NCBI GenBank assembly: GCA_964465995.1
Contig: CAYXLV010000001.1
Coordinates: forward strand, 1-31,589
Direction: 5' to 3'
DNA from: an uncultured Coxiellaceae bacterium
GTDB lineage: Bacteria; Pseudomonadota; Gammaproteobacteria; Coxiellales; Coxiellaceae
Length of the DNA: 31,589 bases
Shown here one piece after another: positions 189 through 6,241 of the stretch; positions within the stretch are counted from its first letter, which is position 1; every line of letters begins with the position of its first letter. Below the pieces are notes generated by a model. That model was given only the letters and a program-made list of their open reading frames with translations, ran no database searches and was not told the DNA's origin. The position numbers and the translations under genes were made by a program.

Positions 189-2192
189 TTAGGGAAAAAT
201 CACCATTGGTGGGTTGTCTGGTTTTGTTTGATTTGGCGTTTGATGCTGAGGCTTTGGTTTGGGTGGTGGTGTTTGGTGTTGTGTTTTTGTTTTAGGTGCG
301 TGTTTCGATTGTTTGTGATGAGTGTCTGATTGTGGTTGTGTGGGTGTTTGATGCTGGCCGCTGGTTGGTGATGGTTGCGCCGGTGCCGGTTGAGTGTTGA
401 GTTCAGGAGGCGGCGGTGGTGTTTGATTATGCGTGTCAGGTGCGGGCGCTTGATCTGGTGTGTCAGGCGCTGGTGGTGTTTGATCTGGTGCGCTAGGTGC
501 TGGCGGTGGTGTTGGCGCTTGATCTGGTGCATTAGGTGCCGGCGGTGGTGTTGGCGCTTGGTCTTGTGCATTAGGTGCCGGCGGTGGTGTTGGTGCTTGA
601 TCTGGTGCATTAGGTGCCGGTGGTGGTGTTGGTGCTTGATCTGGTGCATTAGATGTTGGCGGTGATGCTGGTGCTTGGTCTGGTGCATTAGATGCTGGCG
701 GTGATGTTGGCGCTTGGTCTTGCGTATTAGGTGCCGGTGGAGGAGGTGTTGCTTGGTCCTGCGCGTTGGGTTCCGTTACCGCGGGAGTCTGCTGCTGCGG
801 TGCTTGTCCATTCGGTGCAGTGGGTGTGGTTTCTGGTGTTGGGTTGGGTAAAAGTGTTTGTTTTGGATAGGGCTCAAAAGACGGCGGTTTATCGTTAATT
901 AACATTTGCCCATTTTTAAAAGTCATTTTCATAACCAGGTTATCGCCGTCTGGTACTAACTTCTCATTCTTTAACCAAAACTTAATTTGTAATTCAGCCA
1001 TTTGCTCAGGCGTTAAATTGTCGGTGCCAGGCACATGACCGTTATTTTTACGCTTCTCATAAAAGTCGGTCAGCTGTTGCAACAACCATTGATGCGGCAC
1101 GGTTAAATTAGCTTTAGCCGTAGTATTTTTGGTTAGCAAGCTCATGCTGGGTTTGCCATTCTGGTTCGGTATATTGATAAACGCATCAAAAACAACTCGG
1201 CCATCATCCGTGCGAATCGTGAATTGATTAACGTCAATGCGTAACACTTTGCTGACTAATTGAAGTAGCGGGCTGTAAAGCTTGGCGATTTGTTGAGGGT
1301 TAGTCGACTGGTCGGCTGAGGTCTTGGCGGCATCACCGGTGAGTTGTTTTAATGCAACCGTGTCTAAGCCTTTAATAGACACATCAAGTACAATCGGTCC
1401 GATATTCATCGAATCGCTTTTAATGGTTTTCGTGTTGTAAGTAAAAAAGAGATTGGTTTTTTGCGCCTGTTGATTTTGCTTTGCATTAATTGCTACATCG
1501 TTAATGCTAATCGTGTCGTTTTTCAGCTGCGCCGTAATATTATTAATAGTTAAAGTGCGTTGACCAAACCAAACAGTATCATCTTGAACGTAATTGGCAT
1601 CACTTTTTAGCTGATTCAGCGACACTGTAAAACTCGGTGTTTGTAAAGAAGCCGATTCAAGCAGCACATTAAAAACCACTTTATGTGAGTCCACGCCATA
1701 GCTCATGTTGCCACTTAATCCTTTCAGGGTGAACGTCATGTTGCCATTTTTAAAGTGGATATCTTCTGACTGAAAGTGGTTCTTTAACACATTATCCATC
1801 GTCCAAACGGTTTTAGAATGAAAGCGTATCCCATTGTCATCAATTTTGTTTTGGATAAGAGCGCGCGCAAATAACAGCGAGGTTTTACCATTTTTGCTTT
1901 TAGCGATAATAAAAGGACCGTGTTGAATATGCTCTGTGACCACAAAGCTCATCCCTTTGGTTTTGTCTTGTTCAACTTGGGAGCCCAGATGAATCCGAAC
2001 TTTGGCGGTTGAGTCAAACCAGCCGCGATGAAAACTAATCAGCTTAGCTTTAATATCATTGGTTTGAGAAAGGTCTTTTAGAACACCTTGGTATTGGTCT
2101 TTGATCATAAAACCCATACCAAAGGGTAATCCGAATACGACTAGTAAGCCGAGAACGATCACAATCGATAATGTAATGGTTAGTTTGCGCAT
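189..2192 (-). CDS. YdgA/DUF945-family membrane-anchored protein with a Pro/Gln-rich C-terminal extension
   Basis: N-terminal TM anchor followed by PFGMG; motifs 'FHRGWFDSTA', 'EHIQHGPF' and 'FKNGQMLIND' resemble YdgA/DUF945. The last ~220 aa are low-complexity P/Q/T/A. Confidence 0.75.
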   Translation of the reverse strand: MRKLTITLSIVIVLGLLVVFGLPFGMGFMIKDQYQGVLKDLSQTNDIKAKLISFHRGWFDSTAKVRIHLGSQVEQDKTKGMSFVVTEHIQHGPFIIAKSKNGKTSLLFARALIQNKIDDNGIRFHSKTVWTMDNVLKNHFQSEDIHFKNGNMTFTLKGLSGNMSYGVDSHKVVFNVLLESASLQTPSFTVSLNQLKSDANYVQDDTVWFGQRTLTINNITAQLKNDTISINDVAINAKQNQQAQKTNLFFTYNTKTIKSDSMNIGPIVLDVSIKGLDTVALKQLTGDAAKTSADQSTNPQQIAKLYSPLLQLVSKVLRIDVNQFTIRTDDGRVVFDAFINIPNQNGKPSMSLLTKNTTAKANLTVPHQWLLQQLTDFYEKRKNNGHVPGTDNLTPEQMAELQIKFWLKNEKLVPDGDNLVMKMTFKNGQMLINDKPPSFEPYPKQTLLPNPTPETTPTAPNGQAPQQQTPAVTEPNAQDQATPPPPAPNTQDQAPTSPPASNAPDQAPASPPTSNAPDQAPTPPPAPNAPDQAPTPPPAPNAQDQAPTPPPAPNAPDQAPTPPPAPSAPDQTPPAPDTPDQAPAPDTHNQTPPPPPELNTQPAPAQPSPTSGQHQTPTQPQSDTHHKQSKHAPKTKTQHQTPPPKPKPQHQTPNQTKPDNPPMVIFP
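411..767 (-). repeat. Intragenic 39-bp (13-aa) tandem repeat, consensus NAPDQAPTPPPAP
   Basis: Unit-initial codons at 767, 728, 689, 650, 611, 572, 533 and 494 (exact 39-bp period): seven full units, then three shortened or degenerate units. Confidence 0.95.
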
Positions 2193-2225
2193 AACCTGCT
2201 CCTATTTATCAATAGAGGCAGAGGG

Positions 2226-3986
2226 CTACATTGATTGCGGTGCAGAGAGTCCGAGTAGCTTAAGTCCTTTTGCAATGACAATTTGCACGGCTTTAATTAA
2301 GCACAATCTCGCGTTGCGTAGATTGGATTCCTCCACCAAGAATTTACTAGCATTATAGTAGCTATGAAAATGGTTGGCGCAGTCCTGTAAATAGTGGCAA
2401 ATCAGGTGAGGTTCGTAATTTTTAGCCGCATTGGTAACGATTTCTGGTAATTTTGCGATATGAGACATTAGGTTTTTTTCATAGTCTGAGCGCAATTGCT
2501 CAAGATTGGTCAGGCCTTCGGCTTGGTCCAATGACCAGTCGCTTTGTTCGAGTTGGCGCCACACACTGCAGATACGGGCATGTGCATACTGTATGTAGTA
2601 AACCGGGTTTTCATTAGACTGAGAGGTGGCAAGATCCAAATCGAAGTCAAGATGTTGTTCTGGGCGGCGCATCACATAAAAGAAGCGCGTTGCATCGTTA
2701 CCCACTTCATCACGCAGACTGCGCAAAGAAACAAACTCACCCGACCGTGTCGACATCGCTACCTTCTCGCCCCCGCGATAAAGGGCAGCAAACTGCACCA
2801 TTAAGACACGCAACTTTGCAGGATCTTTACCTAACCCTTTGAGATAAGAACGAATTCTTGGAATATAACCATGGTGATCAGAACCAAATATATCGATCAC
2901 ATGATCATAGCCATCATTATATTTGTGCAAGTGGTAAGCCACATCGGAAGCAAAGTAGGTGGTTTGGCCATTGGAGCGAACCAGGACGCGGTCTTTCTCA
3001 TCGCCAAGCTCCATGGCACGAAACCAAATGGCGCCTTGTTGCTCATAGGTATAGCCGTGGCTTTTCAGCAGATTAATACCTTCTTCAAGCAACCCGGTAT
3101 CGACCAGTTGGCTCTCATAAAACCAGTTATCAAACACAACGCCAAACTCGGATAAGTCATCTTTAATATCAGCCAAGATACTGTCCAATCCAAACCGAAG
3201 TATGGTTTTGACCTGGTCAGGGCCAATAAAGTCAGACATGGCGCTAATCAGTTTATCAAGATTGCGATCGGCTTCTTCCTTAGCGTTGAGGTCTTTGGGA
3301 TAAGCATTAGTCAGTTGGGTTTGGTCAGCGACAAATTTTTCCCCATTCTGCTCAATAAGCGCTTTAGCGATATCGATCACATAGTCACCTTGATAGGCTT
3401 TTTCGGGGAAGATGATATCCATTCCGAGCTGTTGGCAATAGCGCAGCCAAATACTGAGCGCTAGGATATGCATTTGGCGGCCTGCATCGTTCACATAATA
3501 TTCAGAGTGCACTTGGTAGCCAACGCTTTTTAAGATCGTCGCCAAGCAAGCCCCATAAGCGGCGCCACGTCCATGGCCAATATGCAGCGGTCCTGTTGGA
3601 TTCGCAGAAACAAATTCGAGGTGGATACGCTCACCTTGCCCAATATTCGTAAAACCAAAGTTAGCCTCATCGTTCAGGATCTTGCTGACAACTTCTTGGA
3701 AAGCATCATCATTTAACCAGAAGTTAATAAAGCCTGGGCCGGCGATTTCGGTCTTTTTAATTGCATTGGTTGCCGGTAGGGCATCGACAATTTTTTGGGC
3801 TAATTCACGGGGATTGGTTTTGGCAGGTTTGGCTAGTGTTAAGGCAATATTGGTTGCAAGGTCACCAAATTTCTTATCTTTGGTGTGATCTATTTGAATA
3901 GACAGTGAATCAATCGCGGGCAACACGCCGTCTTGTTGAAGTTGATCGACTGCGCTTTGCAGCGCATCTTGCAAGATGGTTTTCAT
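2226..3986 (-). CDS. argS: Arginine--tRNA ligase
   Basis: 'EFVSANPTGPLHIGHGR' HIGH motif, 'GPGFINF', 'MSTRSGEFV', 'YYIQYAHARI' anticodon domain; 586 aa. Confidence 0.98.
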   Translation of the reverse strand: MKTILQDALQSAVDQLQQDGVLPAIDSLSIQIDHTKDKKFGDLATNIALTLAKPAKTNPRELAQKIVDALPATNAIKKTEIAGPGFINFWLNDDAFQEVVSKILNDEANFGFTNIGQGERIHLEFVSANPTGPLHIGHGRGAAYGACLATILKSVGYQVHSEYYVNDAGRQMHILALSIWLRYCQQLGMDIIFPEKAYQGDYVIDIAKALIEQNGEKFVADQTQLTNAYPKDLNAKEEADRNLDKLISAMSDFIGPDQVKTILRFGLDSILADIKDDLSEFGVVFDNWFYESQLVDTGLLEEGINLLKSHGYTYEQQGAIWFRAMELGDEKDRVLVRSNGQTTYFASDVAYHLHKYNDGYDHVIDIFGSDHHGYIPRIRSYLKGLGKDPAKLRVLMVQFAALYRGGEKVAMSTRSGEFVSLRSLRDEVGNDATRFFYVMRRPEQHLDFDLDLATSQSNENPVYYIQYAHARICSVWRQLEQSDWSLDQAEGLTNLEQLRSDYEKNLMSHIAKLPEIVTNAAKNYEPHLICHYLQDCANHFHSYYNASKFLVEESNLRNARLCLIKAVQIVIAKGLKLLGLSAPQSM

Positions 3987-4033
3987 AAAGACTTTATCCT
4001 ATTGGCCACAGCCACTTTGCTAAAAGGGCTCAC

Positions 4034-4063
4034 AGTATAGGTCAACTCGATCAGCATTCTCAA
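4034..4063 (-). promoter_or_regulatory. Putative sigma70 promoter for argS
   Basis: Minus strand TTGAGA (4063-4058), 18 bp, TATACT (4039-4034), about 48 bp upstream of the argS ATG. Motif match only. Confidence 0.4.
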
Positions 4064-4094
4064 GCACGCTAGCTCAGCACCGAGTATCGGTAGG

Positions 4095-4181
4095 GTTTCA
4101 ATTACCAATGGAAGCTTTTGCTAATAACTTTCCATTGCTAATGGAAACATGCTAGCATAAGTTTCCATTGACAATAGAAAC
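4095..4181. repeat. Three 21-bp imperfect palindromes at exact 33-bp period, consensus GTTTCCATTGNCAATGGAAAC
   Basis: 4095 GTTTCAATTACCAATGGAAGC; 4128 CTTTCCATTGCTAATGGAAAC; 4161 GTTTCCATTGACAATAGAAAC; 12-bp spacers. Confidence 0.9.
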
Positions 4182-4189
4182 CTTAGGTA

Positions 4190-5476
4190 ATGGATAAGCA
4201 GGTCATAAAAGCAGTCATCTTAGATCAACGTAAGCTAGGCGCACTCGCTAAGGTGGTGCCACGTAAAATATTTGCTGATTTAAATCGGTTAAAAAAATCA
4301 AAGCAGGTCATCATTGTTTCTGGCATTAGGCGCTGTGGTAAGTCGGTAGTGCTGTGGTTATTAAGGAAGGATGCTAAAGAGCAAGATTATTATATTAATT
4401 TTGATGATGACCGCTTAGTCAATTTCAAAGTTGAAGACTTTCAAGTGCTTTATGAGCTACTGGTAGAAATGTATGGCCCACAAGATACCTTTTATTTTGA
4501 TGAAATTCAGAACATTGAAAATTGGGAGCGCTTTATCCGACGTTTGCATGAACAGGGGAAAAAAGTATATATCACAGGATCAAATGCTTCGATGTTAAGT
4601 GTGGAGTTAGGGACTCATTTAACAGGGCGCAATATTGAAATTAATTTATACCCATATTCTTTTCGTGAATACCTAGCGACGAAGGGAAAAATAGATGTAG
4701 AAATAACCTCATTAAATACAGTCGAGAGAGGAGTTTTAAAATCCATATTTAATGAATTTCTGGAAGAAGGTGGGTTGCCAGAATATATTGATACGAAGCA
4801 ATCTGAGTATCTGCACAGCCTTTATCAAAACATCTTATACCGCGATATTATTGTCCGTCACAATATTACTAATCATCATGCCATTAGAGAGCTGGTATAC
4901 TACCTTGCGAGTAATATTGGCAAAGAGTGTTCCTTTAATTCATTAAAAAATATGCTGGGTTTAGCCAGTGCAACCACGGTTTCTGAATACTGCCGCTATC
5001 TGGAAGATAGCTTTTTATGTTTCTTTATTAATCGCTATGATTATTCTTTAAAAAAACAAATTCAAAGCCCTAAAAAAGTTTATTTTATTGATCAGGCGTT
5101 AGCAGTTGCTGTAGGTTTTCGCTTTGATTCAGACCTAGGCCGGTTGCTGGAAAACGTCGTATTTCTAGAATTAAAGCGCCGTGGCCATTCGATTTATTAC
5201 CACCAGGGTGAGAAAGAGTGTGATTTTGTTTTAAGGGAAGGAACAAAGGTCTTCGCGGCAATTCAAGTGACGGCTTCATTAACGGATCCAAATACCCGAG
5301 AACGAGAAATAGCTGGTTTAATGGATGCAATGCAAGCATATCAATTGAGTTCAGGGACAATATTAACGAGTGATACCTTTGCTGAAGAAGAGGTGATTAA
5401 GGATAATATCACTTACAAAGTTCATATTCTTCCCATCTGGTTTTGGCTGCTGCAAGCATCGCACAATAATATTTAA
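4190..5476 (+). CDS. AAA_14 ATPase with C-terminal DUF4143 (PD-(D/E)xK-like) domain
   Basis: Walker A GIRRCGKS, Walker B FYFDE, 'ITGSNAS', 'GGLPE', 'KKVYFIDQAL', 'GRLLENVVFLEL', 'ECDFV...AIQV'; visibly more AT-rich than its flanks. Confidence 0.88.
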   Translation: MDKQVIKAVILDQRKLGALAKVVPRKIFADLNRLKKSKQVIIVSGIRRCGKSVVLWLLRKDAKEQDYYINFDDDRLVNFKVEDFQVLYELLVEMYGPQDTFYFDEIQNIENWERFIRRLHEQGKKVYITGSNASMLSVELGTHLTGRNIEINLYPYSFREYLATKGKIDVEITSLNTVERGVLKSIFNEFLEEGGLPEYIDTKQSEYLHSLYQNILYRDIIVRHNITNHHAIRELVYYLASNIGKECSFNSLKNMLGLASATTVSEYCRYLEDSFLCFFINRYDYSLKKQIQSPKKVYFIDQALAVAVGFRFDSDLGRLLENVVFLELKRRGHSIYYHQGEKECDFVLREGTKVFAAIQVTASLTDPNTREREIAGLMDAMQAYQLSSGTILTSDTFAEEEVIKDNITYKVHILPIWFWLLQASHNNI

Positions 5477-5524
5477 TACTGCCTTAAGCTACTTTTATGC
5501 CATCTTTTGATATACTGGCGCCCC

Positions 5525-6241
5525 ATGAGTACTCAAAATATTTTAATCGTTGATGATGATAAAGGCATCCGTGACCTGCTAGGTAAGTTTTTACAGCAGC
5601 ACGGCTATCAAACCACCTTAGCCCAAGATGGCGCTGCGATGAAACTATTGCTGCTTGAACAGCAATTCGACTTAATTATTTTAGATATCATGATGCCAGG
5701 TGATGATGGCATGTCACTTTGCCGGCAATTACGTGCCTCCTCATCCGTGCCAATTATTATGCTCACAGCGATCAGTGAAGATGTAGAGCGTATCTTAGGG
5801 TTAGAAATGGGGGCGGATGACTACTTGAGCAAACCGTTTAATCCTCGAGAACTTTTAGCCCGCATCAAAGCCATCCTCCGCCGCAGTCAAGCCCAAGTCC
5901 CCAATGAAACGCCAGAAGATTATCAAACCTATCAATTTGCCAATTGGACCTTAGATAAAATTTCACGCCGCTTGGTGTCACCTGAGCAACTTGAAATCAG
6001 TTTAAGCAGCGGTGAATACAATTTGCTATTAGCATTTGTTGAACGCCCGCAACAAGTATTGAGTCGCGATCAATTATTAGACCTCACCAAAAACCGCACC
6101 GCTGGACCGTTTGATCGCAGTATTGATATTCAAATTAGCCGCCTGCGTCACAAGCTCGAAGAAGACCCTAAAAATCCAACCATTATTAAAACCGTTCGCG
6201 GTGGTGGTTATGTATTAGCAACGGCAGTAGAAAAAAGTTAA
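5525..6241 (+). CDS. OmpR-family response regulator
   Basis: Receiver 'ILIVDDD', 'LIILDIMMPG', 'DDYLSKPF'; winged helix 'DRSIDIQISRLRHKLE...TVRGGGY'. Start moved from 5507 to the ATG at 5525. Confidence 0.93.
   Translation: MSTQNILIVDDDKGIRDLLGKFLQQHGYQTTLAQDGAAMKLLLLEQQFDLIILDIMMPGDDGMSLCRQLRASSSVPIIMLTAISEDVERILGLEMGADDYLSKPFNPRELLARIKAILRRSQAQVPNETPEDYQTYQFANWTLDKISRRLVSPEQLEISLSSGEYNLLLAFVERPQQVLSRDQLLDLTKNRTAGPFDRSIDIQISRLRHKLEEDPKNPTIIKTVRGGGYVLATAVEKS

Follow-up and report, generated by a model that had tools for sequence, protein, structure and literature searches.

Phased dyads before an AAA_14-DUF4143 ATPase-nuclease-like gene: a candidate self-operator array whose 33-bp layout is conserved across bacteria and archaea

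Which protein reads three phased palindromes that stand directly in front of a solitary ATPase gene, and to what effect? The question is raised by a stretch of 31,589 nucleotides from an uncultured Coxiellaceae bacterium (assembly GCA_964465995.1, contig CAYXLV010000001.1, positions 1 to 31,589, henceforth 'the window'), in which three dyads precede a gene coding for a protein with an AAA_14 ATPase domain and a DUF4143 domain. From the comparison of sequences we consider it likely that these dyads constitute a cognate and cooperative self-operator array, to be bound by the product of the adjacent gene, and, with somewhat less assurance, that binding would lead to repression. The 33-bp layout of the sites at the core promoter is conserved family-wide and across the two domains of life, and the site sequences are lineage-specific.

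The array and its gene consist of the following features, listed by position in the window.

4095..4115: dyad O1 (distal), GTTTCAATTACCAATGGAAGC, 7/10 arm pairs symmetric, 3 mismatches to GTTTCCATTGNCAATGGAAAC
4116..4127: spacer 1, TTTTGCTAATAA, matching the family pattern TTTT-N5-TAA
4128..4148: dyad O2 (middle), CTTTCCATTGCTAATGGAAAC, 8/10 arm pairs symmetric, 2 mismatches to GTTTCCATTGNCAATGGAAAC
4149..4160: spacer 2, ATGCTAGCATAA
4161..4181: dyad O3 (proximal), GTTTCCATTGACAATAGAAAC, 9/10 arm pairs symmetric, 1 mismatch to GTTTCCATTGNCAATGGAAAC
4190..5476, plus strand: AAA_14 + DUF4143 ATPase-nuclease-like gene, 428 aa, assigned to PADLOC PDC-S01

The geometry described in the initial annotation, three 21-bp palindromes phased at 33 bp and ending 8 bp before the start codon, is exact: the start-to-start distances are 33 and 33 bp, as also seen by the repeat finder, and the 8 bp CTTAGGTA separate the end of O3 at 4181 from the ATG at 4190. 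Comparison of the sites with GTTTCCATTGNCAATGGAAAC equally bears out the gradation of 3, 2 and 1 mismatches, with the best copy nearest the ATG. As to the proposal that all sites occupy one face of the DNA, the 33-bp spacing stands, while the common face is an approximation only, 33 bp being 3.14 turns of B-DNA. The additional palindrome pointed out inside the second spacer is there as well, the 10-bp ATGCTAGCAT at 4149-4158; neither spacer 1 nor the spacers of relatives, built on the TTTT-N5-TAA pattern, have anything comparable, and this palindrome probably arose incidentally or belongs to the -10 region. The spacers of the relatives L059, L050, L072 and L082 begin with TTT and finish with TAA or TAT.

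The array is non-random, and within the genome its motif is confined to this locus. A search of the window for GTTTCCATTGNCAATGGAAAC at up to 3 mismatches recovers the three sites and no others, against a chance expectation of 0.01 matches per window, and none of 100 dinucleotide-preserving shuffles gave three or more. A scan of the entire assembly (476 contigs, 2,377,336 bp, 97.6% complete) for the 19-bp core, with 3 mismatches allowed, gave matches with 1-2 mismatches at the array only; the six other matches were isolated sites with 3 mismatches, and half-sites were not clustered elsewhere in the assembly. A chance repeat is excluded by the shuffles. That the dyads might be a degenerate CRISPR-like mini-array, or plasmid-type iterons or origin repeats, is brought to mind by the GTTTC...GAAAC termini, which resemble those of some CRISPR repeats, and by phased repeats beside a gene for an AAA+ and winged helix-turn-helix (wHTH) protein, which recall the origin recognition box (ORB) elements near orc1/cdc6. 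We nevertheless find any of these scarcely credible, as there are only 3 copies of a 21-bp repeat with 12-bp spacers that are similar to each other rather than unique, a geometry already judged too short for CRISPR, as the Pfam matches include no Rep, Cas or Cdc6 domain, as the locus is a chromosomal insertion between housekeeping genes, and as the paralogues in relatives, which can number 8 in a genome of 2 Mb, each have an array of their own.

The gene behind the array fits a DNA-binding role for its product. Both domains implied by its designation as a solitary AAA-DUF4143 gene are recovered by Pfam, AAA_14 (PF13173; E 1.2e-33) at residues 38-162 and, C-terminal to this ATPase domain, DUF4143 (PF13635; E 6.3e-25) at residues 218-362, and the PADLOC profile PDLC04787 for PDC-S01 covers residues 21-422 (E 5.7e-120). 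NCBIfam has no model for the 428-aa protein. With argS and a two-component operon of a response regulator (RR) and a histidine kinase (HK) as neighbours, the gene is indeed a solitary cassette. Across 25 homologues the Walker A motif is G45-x-RR-x-GKS52 with G45, R47, G50 and K51 invariant and R48 conserved in at least 90%, and in the Walker B motif, D104-E105, D104 is invariant and E105 conserved in at least 90%. An AlphaFold2 model computed from the alignment of these 25 homologues (pLDDT, the predicted local distance difference test, 90.3; pTM, the predicted template-modelling score, 0.90) places an AAA+ core and lid up to about residue 222, followed by a central winged helix at residues 229-299, with helices 229-241 and 249-256, a recognition helix 261-273 (nt 4970-5008) and a beta wing 277-299, and by a C-terminal alpha/beta domain resembling restriction endonucleases (REase-like) at residues 316-415 with invariant E321, D345 and Q359. 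According to this confident model a canonical wHTH is present, and the DUF4143 span comprises this wHTH plus the beginning of the REase-like domain. The PD-(D/E)XK motif of the latter is atypical in that E321 and D345 are invariant, but its third motif reads Q359-V-T/C without lysine in place of (D/E)xK; nearby, R372 is conserved in at least 90% and E373 is invariant. The nearest folds in Foldseek are AAA+ proteins with a winged helix, namely subunits of the origin recognition complex (ORC), RuvB, RFC, Avs4 and TnsC, at low TM-scores of 0.2-0.35. A profile search of the PDB gave no close relative and only weak P-loop matches, the best being 2fna (E 6.5e-4, residues 22-65).

If the product of the gene is to read the array, homologues elsewhere should be preceded by arrays of their own. 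The homologues came in part from a set of 41 related genomes, of which 13 have the gene, the copy number reaching 8 in a 2-Mb genome and amounting to 2 in the genome of the window itself. The GTDB species representatives supplied the others, a search with 7 close sequences giving 80 loci at 48-55% identity. Their hosts belong to the Gammaproteobacteria, Alphaproteobacteria, Chlamydiota, Verrucomicrobiota, Bacteroidota, Elusimicrobiota and Omnitrophota and, among the archaea, to Methanolobus, Methanomethylovorans, Thermoplasmata, Woesearchaeota and Aenigmatarchaeota. For each homologue 130-220 nt upstream of the start were inspected, and for 106 loci the 140 nt in front of the gene were scanned for the 21-nt self-repeat of greatest strength. 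In 79 of the 106 loci the shift of this repeat equals 33 bp, and in 94 it falls within 32-34 bp, compared with 9/106 in the 32-34 bp range for shuffled sequences and 11/99 for the sequence 560-700 nt upstream. For the best pair of dyads the distance is 33.0 bp in 54/106 loci, as opposed to 14/106 after shuffling. The period even persists in distant paralogues (28-38% identity) with unrelated sites, 16/20 of which show 32-34 bp, examples of such sites being TTACTAA..TTAGTAA, TGTCCCT..AGGGACA and, in L028, four copies of TTTCCYT..AGGAAA. The initial annotation had left to be seen whether phased palindromes accompany the homologues and co-vary with protein clade; such palindromes precede most of the homologues, and the site families track the clades.

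Individual lineages illustrate how the layout is retained while the letters change. In the Verrucomicrobiota locus L059, GCCTCCATTATGAATGGAGGC, 12 bp, GCTTCCATTGCCAATGGAGGC, 12 bp and GCTTCCATTATGAATGGAGAC are followed by 7 bp to the ATG, and three sites each are also found in L092 (Alphaproteobacteria), L082 (Francisellaceae) and L050. Bacteroidota loci (L100, L108) carry three copies of GTTTCTTTTNNNAATAGAAAC and then a TAnnTTTG box, archaeal loci (L083, L089, L094) two or three copies of ATTTGGTYTAYTAAACCAAAT followed by ATATATAAAC, a TATA box, and Chlamydiota loci (L118, L099, L087) CCGTGYRTTGACAATRCACGG, with TTGACA at the dyad centre, 16 nt and TATAAT. The number of sites reaches 4 per locus (L028, L112). 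Where cognate dyads were mapped around the genes of 42 loci, 82 lie within 200 nt upstream, none in the gene bodies and none within 300 nt downstream, which gives no indication of a 'caging' of the gene. The second paralogue in the genome of the window (contig C367, locus L030, 412-1674, minus strand), 33% identical, has its own site, TGTCTTTT...AAAGACA, again at 33 bp, and paralogues in one cell thus appear to have private operators. As the same layout is found beside unrelated neighbours, in different hosts and in both domains, the array follows the gene and not its neighbours or its host.

Some loci of the survey merit separate mention. In genome G002 (contig C27; L015 / L037) a homologue is interrupted by several stop codons, and the dyads TTCCATTATCAATGG are still recognisable upstream of the remnant start. 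Methanolobus bombayensis (L089) has an extra cognate dyad with 1 mismatch 1,814 bp upstream of the ATPase start, which may belong to a neighbouring paralogue. In L074, from a metagenome-assembled genome (MAG) of Candidatus Nomurabacteria of the candidate phyla radiation, both the protein and the site (TTTGGTTT..), followed by a TATA-like box, group with the archaeal clade, which could reflect inter-domain transfer or a mis-binned contig. Homologues further occur on 223 plasmids, 169 of them from Acinetobacter, and in 17 records of phage collections, labelled, where annotated, only 'ATP-binding protein' or 'Uncharacterised protein'.

Which part of the protein would discriminate between the site families is indicated by covariation in 55 loci with confident site calls, 53 of which are spaced at exactly 33 bp. 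Among 428 alignment columns, residue 262, located in the first turn of the recognition helix, ranks top by normalised mutual information (MI) with half-site position 5 (0.92 bit, MI/H 0.51). Threonine or serine at 262 goes along with C at position 5 in 32/38 loci, other residues with C in 0/17; histidine is paired with G in 6/6 loci, and asparagine or arginine with A, T or G. Within the chlamydial clade characterized by H262 and TGC sites is nested L090, with S262 and a TCC site, seemingly a co-reversal of residue and site. The site sequence hence appears to co-vary with the winged helix of the protein encoded next to it, as judged from 4-7 independent phylogenetic contrasts (p = 0.125). Together with the phased dyads in 94/106 loci and the clade-tracking sites, residue 262 supports the suggestion in the initial annotation of an operator array bound by the helix-turn-helix region of the downstream ATPase.

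How the sites are positioned with respect to the promoter bears on the effect of binding. In the window, TTGCTA (4135-4140), the centre of O2, would serve as the -35 element and, 17 bp apart from it, TAAGTT (4158-4163), composed of the end of spacer 2 and the start of O3, as the -10 element. This assignment of TTGCTA-17-TAAGTT is made because the register matches that of L072, with TTGACA-17-TAAGTT followed by the proximal dyad, and because in relatives of the same layout (L072, L092, L082, L050, L059) the corresponding dyad centre is TTGACA or TTGCCA. Transcription of the ATPase gene would consequently start near 4170 with a leader of about 20 nt, and relative to this putative start O1 would extend from about -75 to -55, O2 from -42 to -22 and O3 from -9 to +12. 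In lineages with sigma-70 promoters the dyad core ATTGNCAAT already resembles a -35 hexamer; where a locus has two or three sites, the TTGACA dyad is followed 15-17 nt on by a -10-like hexamer in the spacer, and the next dyad spans the start site and often provides, with its right arm AATGGAGG, the Shine-Dalgarno sequence. The last dyad adjoins the -33/-7 region in Bacteroidota and the B recognition element (BRE) and TATA box in archaea, a position that would fit the same logic of negative autoregulation. As the 33 bp are kept under three unrelated promoter architectures, it is probably the protein and not the promoter that sets the spacing.

From these observations a mechanism can be drawn, for which we infer the identity of the binder, its dimeric or oligomeric stoichiometry, the promoter elements and the sign of regulation, as distinct from the layout and its distribution. 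A dimer of the ATPase-nuclease-like protein would sit on each 21-bp dyad via its two winged helices, and contacts between neighbouring dimers, probably through the ATPase domains, would impose the invariant 33-bp centre-to-centre spacing and render occupancy cooperative. O2 would cover the -35 element, and O3 the end of the -10 element, the transcription start at about 4170 and the early leader, such that occupancy of O2 and O3 would exclude RNA polymerase and the protein would shut off its own promoter. Such self-repression would hold a potentially harmful ATPase-nuclease at a low, steady level, and array and open reading frame (ORF) would move as one self-contained 1.4-kb cassette.

Several observations weigh against this mechanism. 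The ATPase promoter is weak, with 7/12 matches to the consensus, and was not called by a strict sigma-70 scan, so that its overlap with the dyads is argued from relatives; activation would moreover be compatible with the sequence alone. About 10% of the loci lack a clear 33-bp repeat, and in L143, a distant homologue (30% identity) on the Acinetobacter sp. plasmid pACI-b25a, upstream repeats of the GAATTTAAA type (1340-1430) are spaced by about 21 bp instead of forming clear 33-bp dyads, which may represent a different layout in an Acinetobacter plasmid subfamily. The independent contrasts for residue 262 are few, 4 well supported and 7 in all, and although all are concordant the sign test yields p = 0.125. 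Five archaeal-type sites (TTTGGTYTA) combine T262 with a base other than C at position 5, so that either the simple one-residue code fails there or the register differs.

Palindromes in front of a gene can also act as RNA, and a processed structured leader had been considered from the beginning; the dyads would then belong to the ATPase mRNA, either as a 5' leader that is structured or processed or as an attenuator. Each dyad can form a hairpin, and in many relatives the proximal dyad, whose right arm holds the Shine-Dalgarno sequence, is probably transcribed. But copies at the same locus share the sequence of the arms and not self-complementarity alone, mismatches between arms (3 in O1) are uncompensated, the distal copies precede the -35, TATA or -7 boxes and are thereby outside the transcript, and a fixed 33-bp spacing is meaningless for RNA hairpins. 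Rfam returned only sub-threshold, miRNA-like chance matches and no family. A role as RNA is accordingly left without support and appears very improbable.

Closer to the proposed self-operator is an explanation that keeps the same binder and changes the purpose. The array might mainly be an assembly or anchoring platform for an ORC-like, ATP-dependent oligomer with the operator role secondary, which we regard as unlikely; the platform would then serve the sensing or cutting of foreign DNA, the licensing of the nuclease, or the maintenance or mobility of the cassette, and autoregulation would be a by-product, a proposition that seems to us no less unlikely. In its favour, the exact 33-bp spacing kept over three promoter types and two domains suggests that protein geometry sets the spacing, up to 4 sites per locus exceed the need of simple repression, the fold resembles ORC and RuvB, array and ORF behave as a minimal inserted cassette, and the family extends across phyla at about 50% identity and onto the above-mentioned plasmids. 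On the other hand, every site occupies the core promoter, with none inside the gene or behind it, as an operator predicts, neither an AT-rich unwinding element nor terminal repeats nor a target-site duplication are present, the nuclease motif is atypical with Q359-V-T for (D/E)xK, and one PDC-S01 gene did not protect against T7, T5 or T4. A bolder version, possible but rather doubtful, takes the array as the native anchor or substrate of a sequence-specific, ORC-like AAA+ ATPase-nuclease that, with ATP, would form a higher-order complex on its own 33-bp-phased sites, in an autonomous 1.4-kb cassette; its specificity might be re-programmable via a few residues of the recognition helix such as 262. 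Equally tentatively, such an anchor could set self against non-self for defence, or mediate maintenance or spread of the cassette.

Does the array, then, belong to the ATPase gene or to the neighbours with which it shares its intergenic regions? The self-operator reading ties it to the former, and the surroundings of the array are as follows.

2226..3986, minus strand: argS (arginyl-tRNA synthetase), divergent neighbour
4034..4063, minus strand: predicted argS promoter TTGAGA-18-TATACT, 10/12, ending 32 bp from O1 and outside the array
4095..5476, plus strand: probable inserted cassette of array and ORF, 1,382 bp, in the ancestral argS/RR spacer, edges approximate
5508..6241, plus strand: OmpR-type RR, with extended -10 element TGATATACT (5508-5516) and likely ATG at 5525

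An EnvZ-like kinase follows the OmpR-type RR, and this RR-HK operon lies on the same strand as the ATPase gene, 48 bp after it. The ORF finder lists a TTG at 5507 as the start of the RR, in place of which the ATG at 5525 is the probable start; as the extended -10 element of the RR ends 8 nt before that ATG, the RR mRNA may be leaderless or nearly leaderless. In relatives of the same family, with argS up to 61% identical, argS is divergent from the RR-HK operon at a distance of 99-150 bp (G006, G005, G014), and the argS/RR pairing is also found in G002, at the edge of its locus. The flanks around array and ORF in the window sum up to a comparable 108 + 48 = 156 bp. Because argS is directly beside the RR-HK operon in these relatives, array and ORF look like a single-gene cassette inserted into the ancestral argS/RR spacer. 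In this marine, Legionellales-like MAG the array would thereby be the mark of one gene recently inserted between argS and an operon of the ompR/envZ kind. On the other side of argS, downstream of it, lies a DUF945 gene, and this DUF945-argS pair (window 189-3986; loci L121-L132) is syntenic in about nine related genomes.

This context offers room for the explanation that the dyads are sites of an unrelated host factor for argS or the two-component operon, the position of the ATPase gene being incidental. The divergent intergenic region with the array is shared with argS, and the RR-HK operon follows closely on the same strand. Yet the motif is unique in the genome, the predicted argS promoter is outside the array, the RR has its own extended -10 element, an ARG box is missing, relatives without the ATPase gene have argS beside the RR with no room for an array, and the layout accompanies the ATPase gene beside unrelated neighbours in many phyla and in archaea; it would take considerable coincidence for a host factor to be the reader. 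Nor was the motif seen upstream of argS or ompR orthologues in genomes lacking the ATPase gene. Three specific candidates were rejected. A genome-wide regulator, which the initial annotation had named as acting on argS and as a finding that would overturn its proposal, is out with a motif unique in the assembly and half-sites unclustered elsewhere. Control of argS by ArgR is out with the argS promoter outside the array and no ARG box, TNTGAATWWWWATTCANW, at up to 3 mismatches in 3987-4189, the whole window giving 7 matches versus 16 expected. The OmpR-type RR as the binder is out with arrays in loci that have no such neighbour and with argS-beside-RR relatives that have no array.

A strain variant provides a glimpse of the array within a population. 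A 320-nt contig from another marine metagenome (run X2) spans 4062-4381 at 98.4% identity with 5 differences and carries the same cassette in the same place. The three differences inside the array, 4096 T>C, 4100 A>C and 4139 T>C, all restore dyad symmetry: the first two raise the symmetric pairs of O1 from 7/10 to 9/10, and the third re-establishes a G:C symmetry in O2, from 8/10 to 9/10. By our own estimate about 5% of the possible single substitutions in the array restore symmetry, which would give 3/3 by chance with a probability of about 1e-4. Both differences in the ORF (4231, 4243) are at third positions and synonymous. These differences suggest that either dyad symmetry and protein are both under selection in the population, or the copy in the window has begun to decay at O1 and O2. 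Among the other marine metagenome contigs recovered, which were too short, no empty argS-RR site was found.

To our knowledge, PDC-S01 / DUF4143 ATPases have no known biochemical activity, ligand or regulatory logic. In the full texts searched, DUF4143 figures as no more than the name of a domain or a PD-(D/E)XK family awaiting characterisation, and in this literature neither upstream phased arrays nor a winged helix nor DNA-binding specificity are mentioned for PDC-S01/DUF4143 genes. PDC-S01, an ATPase fused to a PD-(D/E)XK domain, has been described as the fourth most common (candidate) defence system in prokaryotes, a survey counting about 39,500 copies, 9,986 of them archaeal and 29,494 bacterial, and reporting that it has passed repeatedly between the domains (PMC12988326). 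In the one published phage test that was found, a PDC-S01 gene in E. coli B conferred no protection against the three phages named above (bioRxiv 10.1101/2024.09.26.614923). The protein of the window is a member of PDC-S01 (COG1373) by PDLC04787 and by both Pfam domains. For such a widespread group, a cognate site in front of each gene is a first concrete experimental handle, as it supplies a defined candidate binding substrate, a candidate specificity residue and a reporter. That the 33 bp are strictly kept at promoters of the sigma-70, Bacteroidota and archaeal types suggests an oligomer of fixed geometry on the DNA. A clone with its native promoter would probably be self-controlled, with the consequence that the protein level in a heterologous phage test is uncertain, which could bear on the negative phage test. 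Were the array in fact a native anchor, PDC-S01 would amount to a very large unrecognised class of programmable DNA-binding ATPase-nucleases in bacteria and archaea.

Compared with known systems, the array shares single traits with several. CRISPR arrays combine repeats of about 23-50 bp with unique spacers of similar or greater length, as opposed to the shorter repeats and mutually similar 12-bp spacers of the array. Plasmid iterons, as bound by RepA, RepE or pi, consist of direct repeats with a usual spacing of about 22 bp and accompany a gene of the Rep family at an origin; alike are phased, lineage-specific repeats before a gene whose product binds them, here by prediction, and the combination of a function with autorepression, while dyads 33 bp apart, the missing Rep domain and the chromosomal context set the array apart.

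Archaeal Orc1/Cdc6 initiators recognize ORBs next to the orc1/cdc6 gene, and the combination of AAA+ and winged helix, the repeated dyad-like boxes beside the own gene and ORC subunits among the best fold matches are common to both. In contrast to these initiators, the protein of the window has no sequence membership in their family, Pfam assigning AAA_14 and DUF4143 only, and its TM-scores are low (0.2-0.35); its wHTH is internal and followed by an REase-like domain, its array shows 12-bp spacers and no AT-rich unwinding element, its relatives form many paralogues per genome (up to 8 loci), and its locus is an argS/RR insertion.

The closest likeness is with autogenous repressor-operator modules, such as the C-boxes of C proteins in restriction-modification systems and lambda CI at OR1-OR3. 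As in these, several dyads would overlie the gene's own predicted promoter, fixed spacing implies cooperativity, the operator travels with the gene when it is transferred horizontally, and the logical purpose would be tight control of a potentially harmful enzyme. Unlike these, the presumed regulator is not a small dedicated helix-turn-helix protein but a 428-aa AAA+ ATPase-nuclease-like effector, and the spacing is strictly 33 bp across bacteria and archaea, with up to 4 sites. On present comparison the element is best filed as a presumptive autogenous operator array with cooperative occupancy, whose reader would be a large AAA+ protein of the ATPase-nuclease type and whose strict 33-bp phase is kept across domains.

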